DNA of 64,000 bases, taken from the NCBI RefSeq assembly GCF_054482595.1, contig NZ_CM137008.1; one strand, given 5' to 3'. This document shows positions 7,718 through 55,416 of the stretch, one piece after another. Position 1 is the first letter of the stretch. Each line of letters starts with the position of its first letter. Position numbers and translations under genes: made by a program. Under the pieces are notes generated by a model. It did not search any database and was not told the origin of the DNA. It was given only the letters and a program-made list of their open reading frames with translations.

Positions 7718-8611
7718 ATGACGAATTTAAAAGCAGTTATACCGGTAGCAGGTCTTGGGATGCATATGTTGCCTGCCACTAAGGCGATTCCCAAAGAGAT
7801 GCTACCGATCGTCGACAAGCCAATGATTCAGTACATTGTTGACGAGATTGTGGCTGCAGGGATCAAAGAAATCCTCCTGGTGACTCACGCGTCCAAGAAC
7901 GCGGTCGAAAACCACTTCGACACCTCTTATGAATTAGAATCTCTCCTTGAACAGCGCGTGAAGCGTCAACTGTTGGCGGAAGTGCAGTCTATCTGTCCGC
8001 CTGGCGTGACCATTATGAACGTGCGTCAGGGCGAACCTTTAGGTTTAGGCCACTCCATTTTATGTGCACGACCCGCCATTGGCGACAACCCATTTGTCGT
8101 GGTACTGCCAGACGTAGTGATCGACGACGCCAGCGCTGACCCGCTGCGCTACAACCTTGCTGCCATGATTGCGCGCTTCAATGAAACGGGCCGTAGCCAG
8201 GTGCTGGCAAAACGTATGCCGGGTGACCTCTCTGAATACTCTGTCATCCAGACCAAAGAACCGCTTGATCGTGAAGGTAAAGTCAGCCGCATTGTTGAAT
8301 TTATCGAAAAACCGGATCAGCCGCAGACGCTGGACTCAGACATCATGGCTGTTGGTCGCTATGTGCTTTCTGCCGATATTTGGCCGGAACTAGAACGTAC
8401 TCAGCCTGGTGCATGGGGACGTATTCAGCTGACTGATGCAATTGCTGAGCTGGCGAAAAAACAGTCCGTTGATGCCATGCTGATGACCGGCGACAGTTAC
8501 GACTGCGGTAAAAAAATGGGTTATATGCAGGCGTTTGTGAAGTATGGGCTTAGGAATTTAAAGGAAGGTGATAAGTTCAGGATGAGTGTAAAAAAATTGT
8601 TAGAAATCTAA
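7718..8611 (+). CDS. galF: UTP-glucose-1-phosphate uridylyltransferase paralog GalF
   Basis: 297 aa with a nucleotidyltransferase N-terminus ([35 protein letters not shown]); immediately precedes the O-antigen cluster. Confidence 0.9.
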
Positions 8612-43770: not shown

Positions 43771-44841
43771 TTATTTAATCCGGGCCATCGCGTTTCTCAG
43801 TGCCAAATCTGCCTCTTCCGTTATATCCAGGCTTTTCTGCAATACCGCCTCTGACCGGGTCAGTGCCTGACGTGCTGCCAGCGGTTTCCGGATATGCTCC
43901 ATCGCCAGCATCGTGTCTTCATAGCCCTGCTGACGCCAGGCGTCGGTATGTGCCGATGTAAAACTGAGCAGACCGCCGCTGTTGCCACCATCACCTGCAT
44001 ATTTCAGCCTTTTCCGGGGACGGATCTCAAGGATTGTGGTGTCCGGAAAAGCCTGGCGATCCCATAAAGAACCGTCACTCAGATGCGTCACAATCACCAT
44101 ATTGCATCCGGCATCGACCAGAGGCGTCACAGGGGTATTTCCCTGCATATTTCGCCATCCTCCCATACCACCATCACCGAACATTGTCCCCTGAACCTCA
44201 CGGGGACGGAACAGCAGGGGCAGCGCGGCTGACGCAAGCAGAGCCTCTTTCTGCTGTCCGCGGGGCAGGCTCTGGATATGCTGAAAAACGGCGTTTTTCG
44301 TGGTTCCGACACCCAGTTCAGCACGAATGCAGTCAATAATATCCTGCATGCCCCCTTCTGTGGGGTACAGCGACACATACAGCGGTAGCCCGTCTGCCAG
44401 AGCATCAGTATCAAGATAATGATCCATCAGCGCTGTCAGGGGCTCATCTGACAACAACGGCTGAGCCATCAGATTGTCAAACCCGTTGATTGTCGATATA
44501 TGGCGAAGAAGCGTCGTAAGCAGTGCTCCTGCACGTCCGGGGATCTGGCAGAGGTTCATTGCCTGGAACAATTTTTTCAGCAATGAAAAGTAAACCAATC
44601 TGTTTACCGACAGCACCTGATTATTCCCCAGATGATCCCAGAGCGCCTCCAGGCGTACGGCAGCTTCTGACAGATCGGGAGAGGCCGCGATAATGGCACC
44701 ATTGAATGCGCCAATGCTGGCCCCTGAAACCATGCTGATCTGTGTACCACACTCTGCCAGTGCCTTAACCACTCCCGCCTGATAAGCGCCCACCGCCCCG
44801 CCACCGGACAGCACCAGCCCCGTTTTCATTTCTGTACTCAT
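43771..44841 (-). CDS. Patatin-like phospholipase
   Basis: 356 aa; Gly-rich oxyanion loop LVLSGGGAVGAYQAG, nucleophile elbow VSGASIGAF (GxSxG), catalytic Asp in FGDGGM (DGG); no signal peptide; start ATG overlaps the upstream stop (ATGA). Confidence 0.8.
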   Translation of the reverse strand: MSTEMKTGLVLSGGGAVGAYQAGVVKALAECGTQISMVSGASIGAFNGAIIAASPDLSEAAVRLEALWDHLGNNQVLSVNRLVYFSLLKKLFQAMNLCQIPGRAGALLTTLLRHISTINGFDNLMAQPLLSDEPLTALMDHYLDTDALADGLPLYVSLYPTEGGMQDIIDCIRAELGVGTTKNAVFQHIQSLPRGQQKEALLASAALPLLFRPREVQGTMFGDGGMGGWRNMQGNTPVTPLVDAGCNMVIVTHLSDGSLWDRQAFPDTTILEIRPRKRLKYAGDGGNSGGLLSFTSAHTDAWRQQGYEDTMLAMEHIRKPLAARQALTRSEAVLQKSLDITEEADLALRNAMARIK

Positions 44842-45743
44842 GCAGCCCCCTTCTGAAATATTTCATCGACCATACTTTCAGAGAGGCGTTCTGCAGAGCA
44901 GAGGCGAGGCATGCGAACCGGTAAGTGTTCTGCAGCCTGCGTGGTTGACCAGATCACCGGATGCTGCTCTTCACTGCACCAGTCTCCCAGCCAGTTAATC
45001 GCGTCATGCCACTCGTTATCTGCCTGCTCCCGGCCCTGACCACCAAGCCAGTCCAGAGTGTTCAGACGCACGGTTGCACTACCGCCACTCTCCTGTGCCA
45101 TCTGCGTTAATGCTTTATGTCTGAGAATATCCAGTAGCTGGTTAACCTGGCCTGTTTCGCCCTGACGTATCACATCACCAAACGCGCCCCAGCGAAGCTC
45201 TTCAAGTGCCACATAACAACGTCCGGCAGGGGAAAATGACGCATATCGCCCGGCGCTCCACCATGAGAATATCTGCTCAAGATGTAACTGCGCCCGCTGA
45301 ACCTGGTCAACACGGTGGAGTTTTTCTTCAAGATGATTCAGTTTATGGTGAACCTGATCGGCCAGGGTGAGTAACTGCTCCCGCGTATCTGCGGAATAAT
45401 GCGCCAGCCTGGCTGTATCACTGACCAGTGAACTGACCCTGTCGTTTACCCGGGTAATCGCGTAGTTTGTGGTGGCAAGTGACGTTGTCATCTCCGTCAG
45501 CCAGCGCAGGGACGCCTCAACGCCCTGTGCAAGCGACGCATTGATGGCATTCTGCCGTGCAGCGCCTTCGCCGGTCAGCCCCTCTTTTAAACGCCGGAAG
45601 AACGTGCGCTCTCCGGCCGTGCGGATATGCTCCTGTGCAACATCGATTCCGTTTGCGAAATCAACCACAAATTTTTCAGGAAGACAGGTGAGTACCTGAC
45701 ATACCCGGTTATCAGCAATTTGTTGAATAAATGGTGAAGTCAC
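44838..45743 (-). CDS. Helical/coiled-coil protein of unknown function, translationally coupled partner of the dynamin-like GTPase
   Basis: 301 aa, no nucleotide-binding motif; ATGA overlaps at both ends (45740-45743 and 44838-44841). Confidence 0.6.
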   Translation of the reverse strand: MTSPFIQQIADNRVCQVLTCLPEKFVVDFANGIDVAQEHIRTAGERTFFRRLKEGLTGEGAARQNAINASLAQGVEASLRWLTEMTTSLATTNYAITRVNDRVSSLVSDTARLAHYSADTREQLLTLADQVHHKLNHLEEKLHRVDQVQRAQLHLEQIFSWWSAGRYASFSPAGRCYVALEELRWGAFGDVIRQGETGQVNQLLDILRHKALTQMAQESGGSATVRLNTLDWLGGQGREQADNEWHDAINWLGDWCSEEQHPVIWSTTQAAEHLPVRMPRLCSAERLSESMVDEIFQKGAA

Positions 45744-48136
45744 AGCATTGTCTCCAGCTCTTCCCTCAGCGCCTTACTGTCAGTAATGAGCTCAGGAACC
45801 CTTTCATTTAATGCCTGAAGTCGCCCGGTAAGTCGTTCCTGCGCCTGCTGATCGCGTTTATGATCCTCAGAGCTCTGAATCAGCGTGTTACGCAGTTGTT
45901 CAACTTTCTCCCTGAATGCGCAGAAAAAGGCATCGATTTCCTGGCGGACGGGCTGGTTAATATCCTGCTCAATGGATGCCTGCAGCTCCCCGAAATATGC
46001 CCGGGTCAGTGACATAACTTCCTCTCTGACCTTGTTGATATTGATCACGCTGCGACTCACATCCTCGTCATAGTTTTCCCAGCCCAGGTCACTGGTGCCA
46101 AACCATCGACAAACGGTTCCCCATACGCCACTCTGCCGACGGCGACGGGTGACGGTCTCCGTTCTTTCCTCCATAAGCGCACTCAGATTTATTTTTACCG
46201 CGAGCCGGGTCTGTAACTGGCTGACTGCCGGAAAACTGATTTTTACGGTAAAGCCCTCATCCTCCAGGCGGGCATTGATGCGACCGGCAATGTTTTCTGT
46301 GGCGTACAGGGCCGTGCCACGAAAACCTGTTTCAATCCCGCTGACGATTTTCTCCAGCTCAGGCCGGAACTGTGCTTCAGCCTCACGGTGCAGGCTGGTC
46401 ACGGTCGATTCGATTTGCGTCATCAGTTCAAGGGCTTCCCTGCGATCACTGAATTTTATTTCGGGGCTGTCCGGGGCAAAATCTCGTTTCCTGTAATCCT
46501 CCCGGCCCTGGTTGTTGATACCGGACCATTGAGAAATTTTCCCCCATAATCCGGACTGAGACCTTCGTTGTTCTGCGTCTTCTTCCTCCAGCATTTGCTG
46601 TTCTTTGCGTTTACCGCTTCTGAAATAGTCATTCAGCTCCTCTTCCAGTGAGGTGCAGACCCCCGTCAGTAATTCCCGGGTTTTAGTATCGATCTCCTCC
46701 ATGGCCATTCTGACATCAGTGGTCATCTGCTCCTGACAGTCCGCGATTTCCCGGATATCCGCAAGCAGGCTGGTGATATGCGACTGCAGTGACTGAATGC
46801 TTTGCTGTAGCCCCTGATGGCGTAACAACAGGTATTCACTGATATTTTCTGCATTCTGCATCAGTTTTGCGGCGGCAGAGTCAACCGCCAGTGCCGCAGC
46901 TCTGGAATGTGAGCTCTGTATGACTTCCGTTATCAGTTGATCGATAAGTGAGCCTTCCCACAGGTCTGTCGCCCCTTCAGTTGCCAGTTCACTGTCTTTA
47001 CAGACGTATTCTTTTTTCATGCAACCGAAGGCACCTCTGATAAAATCATCGACCCAGGCTTCATCAACAGGAAGGGTTCCGTTTTTCCGTAACTCATGAA
47101 GCGCACGGTTAGCCAGGTATGCCTGGCGTGAGGATCCGGGATAAACGCGGGAGGCGGGCAGCACATCGCTGTTCAGCATTGCCGGAACTTTCTGGCGTAC
47201 GGCATCTGCCCCATCGCCATTGCGGTCTTTCTCATCAAATTTATTGACCAGTACAAACAGGCGGCCGGCTGATACGTCAGCAATGGCATTAAGCTCTTTA
47301 CGGACGTCTTCATCCGCTTTTGAGTTCATCTGGGTGTAATCCATCACAGCCAGAACCGCAGAGGCTTTCTGCAGTTGATCCCGCATCATCACTTCCATCT
47401 GCGGTTGTCCGGCCTCATTAGGGCCGGGGGTATCCAGCAGTGTGAGTGTTCCCTGGCATGCATCCATCCCCACCAGATGGCTGAATTCCACGTCGATCAC
47501 CGGCAGTTTCTGCACTTCTGCGTATTCATCAAAAGGAAATTCAGTCCCCATTGCCGCAGCAAGACGAACCAGATCGTTTAACGATGCCAGTCCGGTAAAG
47601 ATTTCCTCCTCCCCGTGGTATTCATTTTTGAGCCAGCCATCATCCGTCAGAATATCCAGCAGTTCGCGGGTATCCCCGGTTTGCTGCAGGGTCTGTGCGA
47701 CCTGCTGTCCTGCCGGGGTGGCGAGTTTTTCCTGCAGTGTGATTAATAAATTGCGGACAGGCTGAATATGTTCCAGATGGAGAACCGGCTCAGTTTTTCC
47801 GGGAACGTGGCGGATGAGCGTCGGTACAGAGGTCATGGGGCGGTTACGGTTAGGCAGAATTTCCTGCCCCACAATGGCATTGATGGTGGTTGATTTGCCT
47901 GCTTTCATCGTGCCGACAACAGCCAGCACCATCTCCCTGCGGGCGGTTTTGATTTGTTCGCCCTCCAGCTCCTCAATTCTTTTCAGTGCTTTCTGTTTAT
48001 CAAAAAGCAGTCTGTTTTCGTTCTTACTGTCAGATAACACATCTGGCTCCTCAACCATTTGCCGGAGCAGATTAATGTTCAGTTGCAAAAGTCGGTCGGC
48101 TTCATCACAAAGCAGGGCGATGTTCTTTTCGTGCAT
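45740..48136 (-). CDS. Dynamin-like large GTPase (bacterial dynamin-like protein family)
   Basis: 798 aa; G1 P-loop VVGTMKAGKSTTINAI, G3 LLDTPGPNE, G4 VLVNKFDEK, then about 500 aa of helical/coiled-coil sequence; AGGAAGG Shine-Dalgarno 7 nt upstream of the ATG. Confidence 0.8.
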   Translation of the reverse strand: MHEKNIALLCDEADRLLQLNINLLRQMVEEPDVLSDSKNENRLLFDKQKALKRIEELEGEQIKTARREMVLAVVGTMKAGKSTTINAIVGQEILPNRNRPMTSVPTLIRHVPGKTEPVLHLEHIQPVRNLLITLQEKLATPAGQQVAQTLQQTGDTRELLDILTDDGWLKNEYHGEEEIFTGLASLNDLVRLAAAMGTEFPFDEYAEVQKLPVIDVEFSHLVGMDACQGTLTLLDTPGPNEAGQPQMEVMMRDQLQKASAVLAVMDYTQMNSKADEDVRKELNAIADVSAGRLFVLVNKFDEKDRNGDGADAVRQKVPAMLNSDVLPASRVYPGSSRQAYLANRALHELRKNGTLPVDEAWVDDFIRGAFGCMKKEYVCKDSELATEGATDLWEGSLIDQLITEVIQSSHSRAAALAVDSAAAKLMQNAENISEYLLLRHQGLQQSIQSLQSHITSLLADIREIADCQEQMTTDVRMAMEEIDTKTRELLTGVCTSLEEELNDYFRSGKRKEQQMLEEEDAEQRRSQSGLWGKISQWSGINNQGREDYRKRDFAPDSPEIKFSDRREALELMTQIESTVTSLHREAEAQFRPELEKIVSGIETGFRGTALYATENIAGRINARLEDEGFTVKISFPAVSQLQTRLAVKINLSALMEERTETVTRRRRQSGVWGTVCRWFGTSDLGWENYDEDVSRSVININKVREEVMSLTRAYFGELQASIEQDINQPVRQEIDAFFCAFREKVEQLRNTLIQSSEDHKRDQQAQERLTGRLQALNERVPELITDSKALREELETML

Positions 48137-48353: not shown

Positions 48354-49226
48354 TCAGAAGAAAATCCAGTTCCATACCGCGCGGGCAACAGAGACCACCG
48401 AGTCACGGACGGCGCGCAGAACCGTGCGTGCAACAGAGGCAATGCAGACGCTCTCCGCCGTGTCAAATATCCGGTCCACCGCACCGGTAAACTGTTCACG
48501 GGCCTGAGACCGGACAGACTCCGTGCGCAGCTCGTCCTGCAGGCGGGTCATCAGGGGACTGGCGGCATGGTCGGGAAGTGCTGTCATGAGCGCACTGACC
48601 AGCGTATCCAGTTCCCAGCCGGTGCGGGCCGATACGGCAACAACCCGATGTACGGGCCGGAACAGACGGAATACCGCCTCCGTTTTTTCGCGAATGTTCT
48701 GTGCCTGTGCGGGAGAAGGCTGAATACCGGCCATATCCCATTCATGGCAGGGCTCCGTTTTATCGGCCTGCATCACCACAAACAGTACCCGCTGATGTCC
48801 CCGGTGCAGGATGTGTCGCCAGAAATACTCATCCACAGACAGGGCACGGTCATCGGCTTTAATCAGCCACAGTACCAGGTCCAGTTCGGGCAGAATGTCA
48901 CGGTACAGGGCTTCATACTCTGCATCCCTGTCCCGGCTCTCGCCCACCCCGGGCAGGTCAGTGATAACCATGCTGTGACCATGGCCATTCAGACGGAAGC
49001 GCTGCACTTCCCGGGTGCCGGCGTGAACATCACTGACCGGGGTGACCTCCCCCTGAAACAGCGCATTACAGAGTGAGGATTTACCGGCCCCGCTTTTCCC
49101 CATAATGCCAATCACGGGTTCGTGACTGGTGAGTTTGCGCAGATGTTCCAGGATGTGACGGGAAAGTGAGTAAGGCAGGGAGGAGAGCGGTTTTTCGATT
49201 GCCTCAATGGCATCAGACGGATTCAT
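48354..49226 (-). CDS. yeeP: YeeP/YfjP/YkfA-family small GTPase (island backbone)
   Basis: P-loop GIMGKSGAGKSSLCNAL, G3 ITDLPGVGE, G4 VMQADKTE; start set at MNPSDAIEAIEK (GGGAA Shine-Dalgarno), about 290 aa. Confidence 0.7.
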   Translation of the reverse strand: MNPSDAIEAIEKPLSSLPYSLSRHILEHLRKLTSHEPVIGIMGKSGAGKSSLCNALFQGEVTPVSDVHAGTREVQRFRLNGHGHSMVITDLPGVGESRDRDAEYEALYRDILPELDLVLWLIKADDRALSVDEYFWRHILHRGHQRVLFVVMQADKTEPCHEWDMAGIQPSPAQAQNIREKTEAVFRLFRPVHRVVAVSARTGWELDTLVSALMTALPDHAASPLMTRLQDELRTESVRSQAREQFTGAVDRIFDTAESVCIASVARTVLRAVRDSVVSVARAVWNWIFF

Positions 49227-49309
49227 ACATGTATTCCCGGTGAAAAAAGACAAAACCCCGCGCACCGGAAAGGTGGCGGGGGATTCACGGAAATAATATC
49301 TGTCTGAAA

Positions 49310-50473
49310 TTATCTGGAATCGATTTGGCTGTTCTGCCTGGTTGCCACCAAATCATGGTACGCCTGCTCAATCATTTCATTCAGCAGTTTTTTTGGGAGG
49401 ACACCACGACTTCGGGCAATACTTTCAAGCTGTTTGTGGATTTTTCCGGACAGTTTCAGAGGGACGGAACCATCAGCACGTTCATCACGCCTTTTTTGTT
49501 GCTCCCGGGCACTTTTCAGCTCATCAAGAAGAATCGCTTTATGCTGAATCCTGGGGGCCTGGAAGGAGACCTGCGTAAACTTCGCTCTGTTCCGTCTGGG
49601 ATTACTTTCCAGTAAAAACTGTACCTGTTGCTCATTCCAGCCCTCCCAGTTATCAAACGTGGCGCAGGCAAACCAGTATTTCTGCTCCGGGGTAAGGGGA
49701 TTCAGCGGGGTTCCCACACACCGGACCTGCATGGCGTTCCATAACCAGTCACACTGTTCACTGTCCCTGCTGTCCACCCACGAAAAGGGGGAGGGGTAAT
49801 CATTGTTTATGCTGGCCCATTCAGAGAATACTGAGTTGATAATCGTCCTCGTAGCCTCTGGTCCGGATTTCAGCAGGTAACTGGAGCAGAACCATATAAT
49901 TTCACGGTAGATTTTATCCGGATGCACGGTGCGCATCGGCTTTTCTCTGGGACCGGCAATCTTCGGTTGCGATGGAAACCCCGTGGCAAACCGCAGATGT
50001 TCCGGGGGCATTCCTGAACGTTTTTCAGGAATGGGTGTGAGTCCTGCGTTTCTGGTCTTTTCCGCTTGTCCGGTATTGCCTCCGGCCGGAGTGTTGTCGG
50101 GAGTATCTTCCGGAGGCGAGGTGTTTTCATTAGTTGGGGGAACAACAGCAGAACTGTCCATCTCCGGAATGGGTTGAGGGGCATAATCACTGTGGTAGCC
50201 AGGGGAAAGCGTTAAGTCCCGAAGGGTGACATCAGGTTCCGGGCAGTGAGTGCCACCGGGAGTGAACGGGAGTTGTTGCTTTTGGGAGAAAAATGTATTG
50301 TGAATGCGGGTATACAGCTGGAACAGAAAAAAATAAGATGCCCGTGGTTCTTTTTTTAACCACTGTGTATATTCCTCTATGGCACCGAGCTGTTGTTTGT
50401 GCCGTTTTACAGCATCGATATACGGACAGCTGGTGCAGATATCATCCAGTTCCTTTCCCACAATACACCTCAC
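49310..50473 (-). CDS. Hypothetical protein (Pro/Thr-rich linker; basic C-terminal helical region)
   Basis: 387-aa ORF with no recognisable family; no canonical ATG near the 5' end (the listed start is GTG), so the start is uncertain. Confidence 0.35.
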   Translation of the reverse strand: MRCIVGKELDDICTSCPYIDAVKRHKQQLGAIEEYTQWLKKEPRASYFFLFQLYTRIHNTFFSQKQQLPFTPGGTHCPEPDVTLRDLTLSPGYHSDYAPQPIPEMDSSAVVPPTNENTSPPEDTPDNTPAGGNTGQAEKTRNAGLTPIPEKRSGMPPEHLRFATGFPSQPKIAGPREKPMRTVHPDKIYREIIWFCSSYLLKSGPEATRTIINSVFSEWASINNDYPSPFSWVDSRDSEQCDWLWNAMQVRCVGTPLNPLTPEQKYWFACATFDNWEGWNEQQVQFLLESNPRRNRAKFTQVSFQAPRIQHKAILLDELKSAREQQKRRDERADGSVPLKLSGKIHKQLESIARSRGVLPKKLLNEMIEQAYHDLVATRQNSQIDSR

Positions 50474-51993
50474 CTGCTTTTCTCACATTTGCAGATTTTA
50501 AAAAAGCAAACAAAAACCTCCGTACATGATGTACAGAACAATCTACCAGGTAGTGGCGTCAGAAAACCTCCGGGCCGCCTGCACTTTCCGGAATGCGCCG
50601 GTTATGAAAAACCGGAAATTCAGTCTCTGTTGTAAGATGTACCCTCTGATACTACGTTTTCTCTGTGTATTTAACTCACTGTATTTATTGTCTTTTTAAG
50701 CTTGACTAATATTCTCCGGTCATAGTGTGCCGGATACACATCCCGTAAACTTCTCATTTTTATATAAAAATACCTGCACTCTCTTCAGCGCATCTGTCTC
50801 CTTTAAGTAAAAAATGTTTTTACGTATTGCTGTAAATTCATTTTAAATCAGTATATTACCTTGATATTGCTGTCTCCTGGTTTGATGCGTAATCGTTCTG
50901 CCTTTCTGGATGATTCTGGTGCTTCCGGGTGCATTCTCCTCTGCACATGCAACAGTTCGTCATCGCCACGCTCCCAAAAAGCATATAAAAACGAATCGAA
51001 TTTGATATTTTTTTCAATCGTTTTTCATAGGAATTTCGTAGGGTATTCTCCGCTATAACCTCCATATTTGCTGTCTTTTTCTTCATAAATCGTATGCAAT
51101 GTAGCCTGTCTGTCAAGACCTCTTCTCTGCTGTTGAGGAGACGATCTCATTTTTGGTCTTTTCCGGGAGAGAGGCTGTCAGATGAGCGAGCCGGATATAC
51201 TGTCAGAGGTACACCCCGTAGCAGACCTGTGCTCCCATTTCCGCGATCCGGAACCAACAACACCCTACGGTTAATACCATTTGAAGCGTCAGGTACTGCA
51301 GGAAGTTCCCCCCTGCGCGGACATCGGTTCCTGCCGACATCTCACAATACGGCCAGACTGTCATGCAGTAACACCCGCATGCGGTCTGCGGTTTTAAGCG
51401 CACTCTCCCGTTTTCAGTGCATCGATAATGCGTCATAGTAAGTCTGGGGGAAGTTACGGAATGCCTGTTAAGTGGTGCCGTGGGTGGAGACAGCTTACTT
51501 TTCTACAGCAACTGCAGTCATTCAGGATGATCAGGAGATATTCTGTCAATGTCACGATCCTGCCATTTTCGTACCCGCTAAGATACTTCCGTTACTGATG
51601 CTGTCCGCTTTTCACCATTTCATCCTCACTGACAGGCGTTGCGTTTTGGGTCATCACCACAGCTTTACGTTTCTCTTTTAACCGGTAACGCTCTCCTTTG
51701 ATATTCAGCGTGGTTGAGTGATGCAGCAGTCAATCCAGGAGCGCTGTTGTCCGGCAACCACCATATCAACTTCTTCCCGGGTGTGGCGGAGAGGTGGTAT
51801 CCTGGCTGAGTTTCGAAGCGAACCGTTCTTTTTGACGGGCGCATTTTACGTCCGGGCTGAATGTAGTAACGCGGCATGGAACGTCGGCCCGTATACCATT
51901 GCCTTAATCTCCGCAAAGATAACCTCGTCATTCCGGACATTCTCTGCCAGGCATATGTCGATGTAATCCATAAACGATTTCAGCTTACCCCTT

Positions 51994-53951
<1,958 letters not shown>

Positions 53952-54813: not shown

Positions 54814-55416
54814 TCAACTGTGAGCGGCATCAACCGATGTACGGTATGCCATAAGCACGTACTGATCCATCAGATTTGTCAGTGGTTCACTCTGACCCTG
54901 ACGTGCAATGATCCATTGCTCCAGATCTTTTTCTGATTTGTGTTTCAGGTTTTTCGTCCAGTCGTCAAGGCTGTTTCCGGTCATTAAGTCAAGCCAGCAG
55001 AGCCAGACCAGTTTGAGACGTAACTCCGTGCCGCCAAACTGACGGAAGAGGCTGATCAGTTTGTTTGCCAGAGAATGTTGCTTCAGGCGCTCACATTCAG
55101 ACAGCAGGATCCCTTCCAGCATCGGATGATGAACCAGCAGGTGTTCGCTGGTGCATAAATTCACCACCAGATCATCATCCAGGGACGGGGAGCTCCGTTT
55201 GTCCGGACCATAAATCAGCCGGTGCAGACTCTGGGGAACGATGGCAATCTCCGGTTTTTCGCCATTGAATGACACCCACCCGGGCGTCAGATTATGGAAA
55301 TAGTAGATATTCGGATGACACACGCCCCATGATACGGCGTGCCGGGTGAAGCCGGTCAGCCATTTCTGGTAGTTTTCATGGAGCAGCTCGTAACGGGTCT
55401 GATACTGTTGTTTCAT
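54814..55416 (-). CDS. Hypothetical protein
   Basis: ORF 54814..55431; likely start MKQQYQTRYELL with GAGGAA Shine-Dalgarno; no family recognised. Confidence 0.35.
   Translation of the reverse strand: MKQQYQTRYELLHENYQKWLTGFTRHAVSWGVCHPNIYYFHNLTPGWVSFNGEKPEIAIVPQSLHRLIYGPDKRSSPSLDDDLVVNLCTSEHLLVHHPMLEGILLSECERLKQHSLANKLISLFRQFGGTELRLKLVWLCWLDLMTGNSLDDWTKNLKHKSEKDLEQWIIARQGQSEPLTNLMDQYVLMAYRTSVDAAHS

Follow-up and report, generated by a model that had tools for sequence, protein, structure and literature searches.

What is encoded directly upstream of the YeeP-like GTPase gene on a genomic island carried in a 64,000-nucleotide (nt) stretch of DNA (contig NZ_CM137008.1 of RefSeq assembly GCF_054482595.1, hereafter the window), and does this gene belong to the fixed part of the island or to its exchangeable load? 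A first-pass annotation, made from the letters alone, had described the open reading frame (ORF) at 49310-50473 on the minus strand as an unassigned protein of 387 amino acids (aa) with no canonical start codon, and had proposed another variable cargo gene, possibly regulatory, or a gene in decay. We refer to the protein of this ORF as X. The island belongs to a class that combines a P4-type integrase, AlpA, a YfjJ/Gp2-like rolling-circle Rep, cargo, a YeeP-like GTPase and a DUF932/antirestriction/RadC/CbtA-CbeA module. On balance we think it probable that X is a weakly constrained backbone protein of these tRNA-associated Enterobacterales islands and serves as their rapidly evolving, DNA-binding regulator.

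The ORF was found in the window exactly as described, with 387 codons counted from a GTG at 50473, an in-frame TGA 9 nt 5' of that GTG and no ATG in frame before codon 105. Only two starts are possible, GTG 50473 or GTG 50461. The absence of a canonical start codon holds solely in the sense that there is no ATG, because GTG is a normal start codon in bacteria. PGAP and RefSeq place the start at 50461 (WP_000514100.1, 383 aa, "hypothetical protein", in E. coli 7/2, NZ_CP023820.1, which is identical over the stretch), and a Shine-Dalgarno sequence, GAGGTG, lies 4 nt 5' of this codon. We take GTG 50461 to be the conserved start of X, because allele L005, in which a 5-nt deletion puts the first GTG position out of frame, keeps AGGTG-TATT-GTG. 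In alleles L010 and L011 the upstream TGA is replaced by TGG, and PGAP starts the protein at an ATG nine codons earlier (391 aa); allele L003 also has TGG there, yet its PGAP start is the GTG. The ORF can be divided as follows.

49310 to 50461, minus strand: coding sequence of X, 383 aa, with the stop codon TAA at 49310-49312; it matches the PGAP call, its start is kept in other alleles and its frame is maintained.
50462 to 50473, minus strand: four extra codons reaching to the first GTG, which contain the Shine-Dalgarno sequence GAGGTG (50466-50471) of the real start.

A separate rearrangement was seen at the start in allele L004 (P0006). There, at about 7990-8030, an 11-nt tandem duplication in the GATGATATCTGCAC region breaks the original GTG start, and a new ATG within the duplication gives an in-frame start again. 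It is the sole length change in or at X that is not a multiple of three.

Of 5426 complete E. coli genomes, 1963 contain X over at least 80% of its length; among the matches listed, 39 of 40 records carry the label "hypothetical protein". The coding sequence was compared between six alleles (the window, L003, L004, L005, L010 and L011). They are separated by five indels of 3, 3, 3, 9 and 21 nt, all multiples of three, four of which fall in a low-complexity linker described below; the neighbouring non-coding DNA carries indels of 1, 2, 4, 5 nt and so on. When the observed substitutions were placed at random in 20,000 trials, the frame stayed open in 0.22% of them for the 153 substitutions of L005 and in 0.095% for the 179 of L004. 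The Nei-Gojobori ratio of non-synonymous to synonymous divergence (dN/dS) is 0.5-0.7 over the whole of X. Comparison of the window or L003 with L005 gives 0.24-0.41 for the N-terminus, core and C-terminus, with one exception, the C-terminus of the L003-L005 pair (0.77). Between divergent alleles the linker, which is too divergent for blastn, gives a dN/dS of 0.57-0.76, with a dN of 0.21-0.37 and a dS of 0.34-0.57 that is several times the core dS of about 0.1. Variable sites fall on the three codon positions as 53/37/49 outside the linker and 37/39/43 inside it. Judged by its reading frame and substitution pattern, X is a translated gene that tolerates many amino-acid changes; it is real, intact and weakly constrained.

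Decay, one of the fates proposed in the first-pass annotation, finds no support in the window copy, the frame of which is intact and maintained across alleles. Frameshifted and truncated copies do occur elsewhere: the products P0013, P0015 and P0017 run into an alternative frame at 49870-50190, and locus L002 retains only a 3' fragment of X. This alternative ORF, which has 106 codons and lies in the linker region on the minus strand, is used by the frameshifted database variants P0015 and P0017, and decayed copies thus circulate beside intact ones.

The position of the gene bears on whether it is cargo. In E. coli the gene order begins with two DUF7828/zinc-ribbon genes, YagK/YfjJ (an inovirus Gp2-like Rep), AlpA (68 aa, PF05930) and a 200-aa protein; IS21-family remnants, 0.8-1.1 kilobases (kb) of unannotated DNA, X and the YeeP-like GTPase follow. 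Beyond the GTPase come Ag43 and/or a dynamin-RdcB-patatin group, then DUF932, antirestriction, RadC, DUF987 and CbeA/CbtA. The downstream neighbour of X in the window is the following gene.

48354 to 49226, minus strand: YeeP/YfjP-like GTPase gene, 290 aa, PGAP "GTPase family protein", with an MMR_HSR1 match at 2e-15.

Outside E. coli the order is YfjJ (minus), the 200-aa protein (minus), AlpA (minus), 0.5-0.8 kb, X (plus) and GTPase (plus), as found in Yersinia similis, Serratia quinivorans, Kluyvera and Hafnia paralvei (L020-L023). This order, with the YfjJ, 200-aa protein and AlpA genes divergent from X and the GTPase, recurs in L013-L015 and in L016 (contigs with P0067 and P0074), and L019 (the contig with P0092) has the order of the other genera except that no match to the 200-aa protein was found. 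The relatives of X in this AlpA-GTPase interval, from Yersinia, Serratia, Kluyvera, Hafnia and metagenomic contigs, are 20-33% identical to it; the comparison across related islands proposed in the first-pass annotation finds them in the place of X. A short relative, P0108, lies on a smaller island beside an integrase, together with YfjJ, RadC and AlpA, and the locus sequence at hand contains no GTPase. The AlpA module of E. coli, with IS21 remnants at its junction, runs in the same direction as X; as read from these gene orders, it is inverted relative to that of the other genera.

Cargo is found next to X. In L003 the space between X and the GTPase holds a TonB-dependent receptor/ABC iron-uptake cluster, in L004 it holds TetR and EamA genes, and in L002, where only the 3' fragment of X is left, it is filled by MFS, hydrolase and LysR genes. 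Homology between the window and the cargo-bearing alleles ends at 49342 and restarts at 49320; the cargo junction therefore lies within the last ~10 codons of X, which accounts for the two alternative tails of the protein, ...ATRQNSQIDSR and ...ANEQHKT... Because its place is kept across genera and the E. coli cargo sits between X and the leader of the GTPase gene, we conclude from the island layouts that X is a backbone gene adjoining the cargo slot and is not itself the variable cargo that had been proposed. The first-pass annotation had also stated that the equivalent position in CP4-57 carries rnlAB. In K-12, rnlA-rnlB indeed lies directly upstream of yfjP; what it fills, however, is the cargo slot that X borders and not the place of X, of which CP4-57 contains no relative. 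The K-12 CP4-44 pseudogenes yoeG and yoeH were considered as remnants of X and ruled out, as they have no similarity to it.

That X is variable cargo or a decaying gene without current function is, in our judgement, highly improbable. The whole-protein dN/dS, the near-even spread of variable sites over codon positions, the broken copies (P0013, P0015, P0017 and the L002 fragment) and the lack of a K-12 homologue would all suit such a gene. Against it stand the position kept across genera at 20-33% identity, a frame that is open beyond neutral expectation, internal indels that are all in frame, the lower dN/dS of the core and C-terminus (the L003-L005 C-terminal pair apart) and the intact X of about 2000 complete genomes.

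What kind of protein, then, is this backbone gene product? The window protein has no match in Pfam, NCBIfam, PHROGs, PADLOC or the PDB, even when split into domains and searched at E<=10. A word-indexed search of 5.8 billion clusters, run with the protein and then with a five-sequence profile, recovered no more than 21 clusters, all E. coli-type and at least 59% identical, the named members of which are all "hypothetical protein [Escherichia coli]". Distant relatives surfaced only with an exhaustive HMMER search of 1.84 billion representatives, which gave 60 proteins at E<=1e-3, among them full-length relatives (316-388 aa) and others that form a shorter group (233-314 aa). E. coli-specific peptide patterns had no match in species-representative genomes; a later scan of these genomes used a six-sequence alignment and gave the Yersinia, Serratia, Kluyvera and Hafnia loci. 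The profile and structure-based homology search recommended in the first-pass annotation thus returned homologues in several genera and no curated family match. In PADLOC, 25 relatives gave three scattered single-member matches at E 0.005-0.01. We conclude from these searches that X founds a family outside current domain libraries, one that appears to join a familiar type of DNA-binding domain to an unassigned core.

The architecture was drawn from an alignment of 25 sequences (A4), in which the relatives outside the E. coli-type group are 17-33% identical to the window protein. The parts of X are listed from the N-terminus.

50321 to 50362, minus strand: N-terminal motif WLKxxPRAxxFxxF (motif A), residues 34-47, with W34 and R40 nearly invariant.
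50012 to 50275, minus strand: hypervariable low-complexity linker rich in Pro, Thr, Ser, Asn and Glu, residues ~63-150.
49562 to 49936, minus strand: Trp-rich core, residues 176-300, matched in all distant relatives.
49478 to 49552, minus strand: basic helix HKxxLLDELKSAxEQQKRR, residues 304-328, with K308, A318, Q321 and R325 nearly invariant.
49346 to 49471, minus strand: ribbon-helix-helix (RHH)-like domain, residues 331-372, with a VPLKLS strand, helix GKIHKQLESIARSRG and helix KKLLNEMIEQAYHDL.

The CxxC N-terminus, the Pro/Thr-rich stretch and the basic helical C-terminus recorded earlier are all present in the window protein, the CxxC being restricted to E. coli-type sequences. Conservation across the wider family is concentrated in the C-terminus and the Trp-rich core. 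The core has the consensus PFSW[LV]DxxxEEQCxWxWxYM...QxYxFIxAxFDxWxGW, in which W215, W228, W239 and D270 are invariant over the 25 sequences, and it found no family or structure match in the Pfam, NCBIfam and PDB profile searches. In hhalign, motif A can be aligned to the Trp motif of the core (P=0.002), and short relatives contain two or three Trp motifs of the same kind; motif A is probably a degenerate copy of the core motif, and the motif probably a unit repeated within the protein. Family members differ in linker length, from next to nothing up to ~130 aa, and the linker is variable in every one of them. The basic helix, with the family consensus HKxxLLDELxKAWxQKxxR, leads into the C-terminal domain and is predicted as a helix (304-328) with low confidence in the full-length AlphaFold2 (AF2) model. 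X ends ~10 residues past the RHH segment.

The RHH assignment comes from the relatives. Within their last 45-55 residues, eight of ten distant relatives matched NCBIfam families, namely YbfE "LexA regulated protein" (7.2e-5), RepA2/CopB (3.5e-4), IncL/M RepC (2.8e-3), BrnA and BfmA, the BrnA antitoxin match (E=0.04) being made through the common RHH. In Pfam, RepB-RCR_reg was matched by four members, with RHH_1 and RHH_7 also found among relatives, and in PHROGs relatives matched an Arc-like repressor. When the alignment profile was compared with the PDB, three of four matches fell on the C-terminal segment: MatP twice, at E 0.3 and 1.3, and the RHH protein SvtR (2kel) at E 1.6. With hhalign, residues 335-372 of the profile aligned with residues 94-131 of E. 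coli MatP, entered as a single sequence, at P=0.0018. Several independent RHH families thus converge, each weakly, on one and the same segment. An AF2 model of a fused dimer (residues 322-380 twice, joined by a Gly/Ser linker) contained four helices at a predicted local distance difference test (pLDDT) score of ~86 and a predicted template modelling score (pTM) of 0.56, and in a Foldseek search with this model Arc, TraY and AvtR ranked first; the identity of the TraY chain among these matches was confirmed. All three are RHH proteins of the single-chain or tandem type. Taken together, the profile matches and the model make it probable that the C-terminal ~45 residues of X form an RHH DNA-binding domain, which lends support to the earlier suggestion of a regulatory role.

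The strand-helix-helix pattern in the C-terminus of X is that of CopG (pMV158), CopB/RepA2 (IncFII), IncL/M RepC, Arc/Mnt (P22) and YbfE. Like the small RHH repressors, X is encoded on a mobile element, and its fused-dimer model resembles single-chain or tandem RHH structures. Unlike those proteins, which have 45-100 aa and little beyond the RHH, X has its predicted DNA-binding domain in the C-terminal tenth of 383 aa and adds a Trp-rich core, a second Trp motif and a long disordered linker. MatP, the best PDB profile match, invites a closer comparison. The alignment spans the basic helix and the RHH of X (MatP 70-130), a helical domain is N-terminal to the RHH in both proteins, MatP binds a 13-bp palindrome, matS, and a 13-bp 6-1-6 palindrome is found upstream of the gene of X. 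MatP consists of a four-helix bundle, an RHH and a coiled coil, however, and X has no C-terminal coiled coil; the similarity is confined to the RHH region, and X is found on a mobile island, whereas MatP is a chromosome organiser. The Pfam MatP models PF06303 and PF17414 matched none of the 25 members of the X family. An equation of the Trp-rich core with the MatP four-helix bundle was unsupported, as the resemblance of WKWKYL to WxWxYM did not score in the PDB profile search or in hhalign.

Several of these matches point to plasmid replication control, and X could accordingly be read as an origin-binding or copy-control accessory of the island HUH Rep (YfjJ/Gp2-like), similar to CopG and CopB, repressors of rep genes, or to RHH proteins of the TraY type, which assist HUH relaxases where they nick. 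The best sub-threshold matches are to replication-control RHH proteins (RepA2/CopB, IncL/M RepC and RepB-RCR_reg), TraY is among the top structural matches, and a HUH Rep gene is always in the module with X. We nevertheless consider this quite unlikely, since RHH domains of all functions look alike at this level, with YbfE, BrnA, Arc and MatP scoring similarly, X is 4-8 times the size of CopG or CopB, and AlpA and the 200-aa protein separate X from the Rep gene.

The pace at which X changes was compared with that of its neighbours. The amino-acid identities of the window proteins to their counterparts are as follows.

X: 27-33% across genera, 73-77% within E. coli alleles.
GTPase: 53-60% across genera, 97% within E. 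coli alleles.
AlpA: 64-78% across genera, 90% within E. coli alleles.
200-aa protein: 58-64% across genera (32% in L016), 86-90% within E. coli alleles.
YfjJ: 39-42% across genera, 87-88% within E. coli alleles.
DUF932: 35-41% across genera.

X is the fastest-evolving protein among its backbone neighbours.

In the role that we favour, a DNA-binding regulator of the island, X would dimerise through its RHH domain and bind DNA. It would most likely regulate transcription of the island, because its gene and alpA diverge in the ancestral layout, and a repressor is the most plausible kind of regulator. Its targets would be its own promoter region and/or a control region common with the divergent alpA-Rep module in that ancestral arrangement, and the N-terminal motif, linker and Trp-rich core may offer a surface for oligomerisation or sensing. 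In E. coli a lineage-specific 0.83-kb region lies upstream, and a 13-bp palindrome within it could serve as an operator.

A number of observations weigh against X being such a regulator. The RHH sequence evidence comes entirely from sub-threshold matches in relatives, none of which exceeds an RHH curated cut-off (best 23.2 bits against 62 for YbfE and 20.6 against 87 for RepA2), and the window protein itself matches no RHH model in Pfam or NCBIfam even at E<=10 or with its C-terminus isolated. The fused-dimer model, computed from four near-identical sequences, describes an artificial construct; the ribbon strands are absent from the prediction, and its Foldseek matches, at E>=0.28, have no significance. 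The full-length AF2 model, built on five sequences, is unusable at a pLDDT of 36.9, with two semi-confident helices at 339-381 only. The near-even spread of variable sites over codon positions (53/37/49) is close to neutral and would fit a gene of marginal importance. X is missing from about three quarters of the E. coli places matched by the leader and 5' end of the GTPase gene, and the candidate operator is a single palindrome that is not conserved in other genera. A literature search by protein accession returned no expression, DNA-binding or phenotype data.

A more far-reaching version of this role would make X the master repressor or sensor of a satellite-like element, one that represses the alpA/excision-replication module until a helper-phage or stress-induced protein inactivates it by binding the fast-evolving N-terminal and core domains, as with Stl. 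X and alpA are divergent across ~0.5-0.8 kb in every non-E. coli locus, X carries the predicted RHH DNA-binding domain, no other backbone gene evolves as fast and one segment of X is hypervariable, as in an arms-race protein, and phage-satellite-like behaviour has been proposed for the island class (PMC12458937). The evidence here is one of position and analogy, however; the X and alpA regions have no common operator, the divergent layout has been lost in E. coli, where alpA is co-directional and insertion sequence (IS) remnants lie between, and the high linker dS points to old or recombinant alleles rather than to demonstrated positive selection. Stl-type repressors, moreover, use helix-turn-helix domains and not RHH. 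In likeness to Stl of the SaPIs, X is a predicted DNA-binding protein divergent from an excision/activation module and highly variable between islands; in difference from it, there is no sequence or fold relationship, the type and position of the DNA-binding domain differ, and derepression of X by a helper phage is hypothetical. We regard a master repressor of this kind as possible yet unlikely. The same holds for the boldest form of the idea, in which X would be the missing master switch of a widespread class of enterobacterial integrative elements with defence, iron-uptake and adhesin cargo. X would then be an RHH repressor with a Trp-rich domain and linker that diversify rapidly and respond to a helper phage or a host signal, which would release AlpA-driven excision and rolling-circle replication, and it would represent a new sensor-domain family fused to an RHH. 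This too we rate as rather improbable.

Regulation by X, as we favour it, directs attention to the DNA on either side of the gene. On the 5' side two features were delimited.

50474 to 51300, minus strand: upstream region of 0.83 kb (827 nt), mostly unannotated, which travels with X.
50522 to 50534: 13-bp perfect palindrome GTACAT-C-ATGTAC, ~60 nt 5' of the start and followed by a T-run and TAAAAT.

The upstream region occurs in 2091 genomes at 2482 places, compared with 2096 genomes and 2554 places for the X ORF. It is 86-89% identical between E. coli-type alleles and has no conservation with the corresponding regions of other genera. A sigma-70-like site, TTGACA-16-TACGAT (51089-51116, minus strand), lies ~620 nt 5' of X and is invariant in E. 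coli-type alleles; outside the E. coli lineage neither this site nor the palindrome is conserved. The palindrome is unique in the window and kept in six of seven E. coli-type alleles, L011 having one substitution; its fold is no better than that of shuffled sequence (z -0.9). It could be an operator or a weak terminator stem, or could have arisen by chance. Loci of other genera have different palindromes near their X starts, which may again be operators or chance. No RNA element in or around X was matched in Rfam at the gathering threshold or at E<=1.

Other small elements were noted in the same region. At 50775-50800 on the minus strand a strong Shine-Dalgarno sequence, AAGGAG, precedes a two-codon ORF, ATG-CGC-TGA, that overlaps a weak terminator-like hairpin, and this element is kept in all E. 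coli-type alleles. A Cys-rich micro-ORF of 35 codons (MTNCCMCRGECTRKHQNHPERQNDYAS...; 50856-50963, minus strand) lies in a nearly invariant stretch of ~95 nt and is kept in seven of seven alleles, with three synonymous changes and one non-synonymous change in its first 27 codons; the stretch could encode a small protein or form an RNA element. A longer upstream ORF of 76-86 codons was rejected as a conserved protein, its frame being broken by 1-2-nt indels in three of seven alleles and only its last 35 codons being kept.

On the 3' side the leader of the GTPase gene begins 3 nt past the stop codon of X and forms the far edge of the cargo slot.

49243 to 49307, minus strand: GTPase gene leader, with TCAGACAGATATTAT at 49293-49307, a GC-rich hairpin at 49256-49282 and a T-run at 49243-49255.

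The leader 15-mer is identical in the E. coli loci and in L013-L016 (9116-9130 in L013, 9210-9224 in L016), where X is 27-33% identical, and a variant of the leader lies upstream of K-12 yfjP (L025). An 86-nt stretch with the leader hairpin folds at -28.7 kcal/mol (z -3.4) and has no Rfam family match. By its sequence features the leader looks like a promoter with an attenuator, or a small RNA.

The lasting adjacency of the two genes could also be explained if X were a partner of the YeeP-like GTPase, as its regulator, its adaptor or one half of a two-gene system. X is followed by the GTPase in one orientation, across a gap of 80-170 nt, from 97% down to 52% GTPase identity. We think such a partnership very unlikely all the same: a conserved leader with a terminator-like hairpin belongs to the GTPase gene itself, cargo of several kb can intervene in E. 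coli, most E. coli copies of the GTPase, K-12 yfjP included, are without X, the P0108 island has no GTPase in the locus sequence at hand, and no PADLOC defence model matches X.

As an island regulator, X would matter beyond this locus. The island class has been described as an uncharacterised mobile element with an integrase, an AlpA-like excisionase, a HUH Rep, defence and other cargo and a RadC/ArdB/CbtA module, a description in which X is not mentioned (PMC12458937). About one in three complete E. coli genomes contains X, which is annotated there as "hypothetical protein" and is covered by no Pfam, NCBIfam, PHROG or PADLOC model. Its fixed position and probable DNA-binding domain make it the most obvious candidate regulator of a class of islands that carries Ag43, iron-uptake, toxin-antitoxin and defence cargo. 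Should X control the island, it would offer a handle for testing whether such "cryptic prophages" act as satellites that are active; otherwise it would be just another accessory protein that evolves fast. For annotation the finding is of use, and the mechanism proposed is in itself no surprise, nothing unexpected having been demonstrated. A comparable interval has been reported from the Shigella flexneri SRL island, where orf42-orf45, listed as ORFs with "no similarity", lie between the Vis/AlpA-like orf41 and the YeeP-like orf46 (PMC6980539, Table 2). The island type and the AlpA-GTPase interval are as for X, and the likeness is one of position and description.

Some further features of the surrounding island were recorded. 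The 200-aa protein (54814-55416, minus strand), which has no Pfam domain, always follows AlpA; across four genera it is far better conserved than X, and it is another uncharacterised backbone gene. Downstream of the GTPase, at 43771-48136 on the minus strand, genes for a dynamin-family protein (798 aa), a YjcZ/RdcB-family protein (301 aa) and a patatin-like phospholipase (356 aa) have overlapping stop and start codons, and this dynamin-RdcB-patatin group is the island counterpart of the chromosomal RdcA/RdcB pair plus a phospholipase. In PADLOC the GTPase and the dynamin showed no more than weak similarity to LeoBC/LeoA. Upstream of X, an IS100 copy (istA 52084-53106 and istB 53103-53885, plus strand) stands beside the older IS21-family remnants (about 51301-51806); the region holding both extends over 51301-53951, and the remnants lie at the junction of the AlpA-module inversion.

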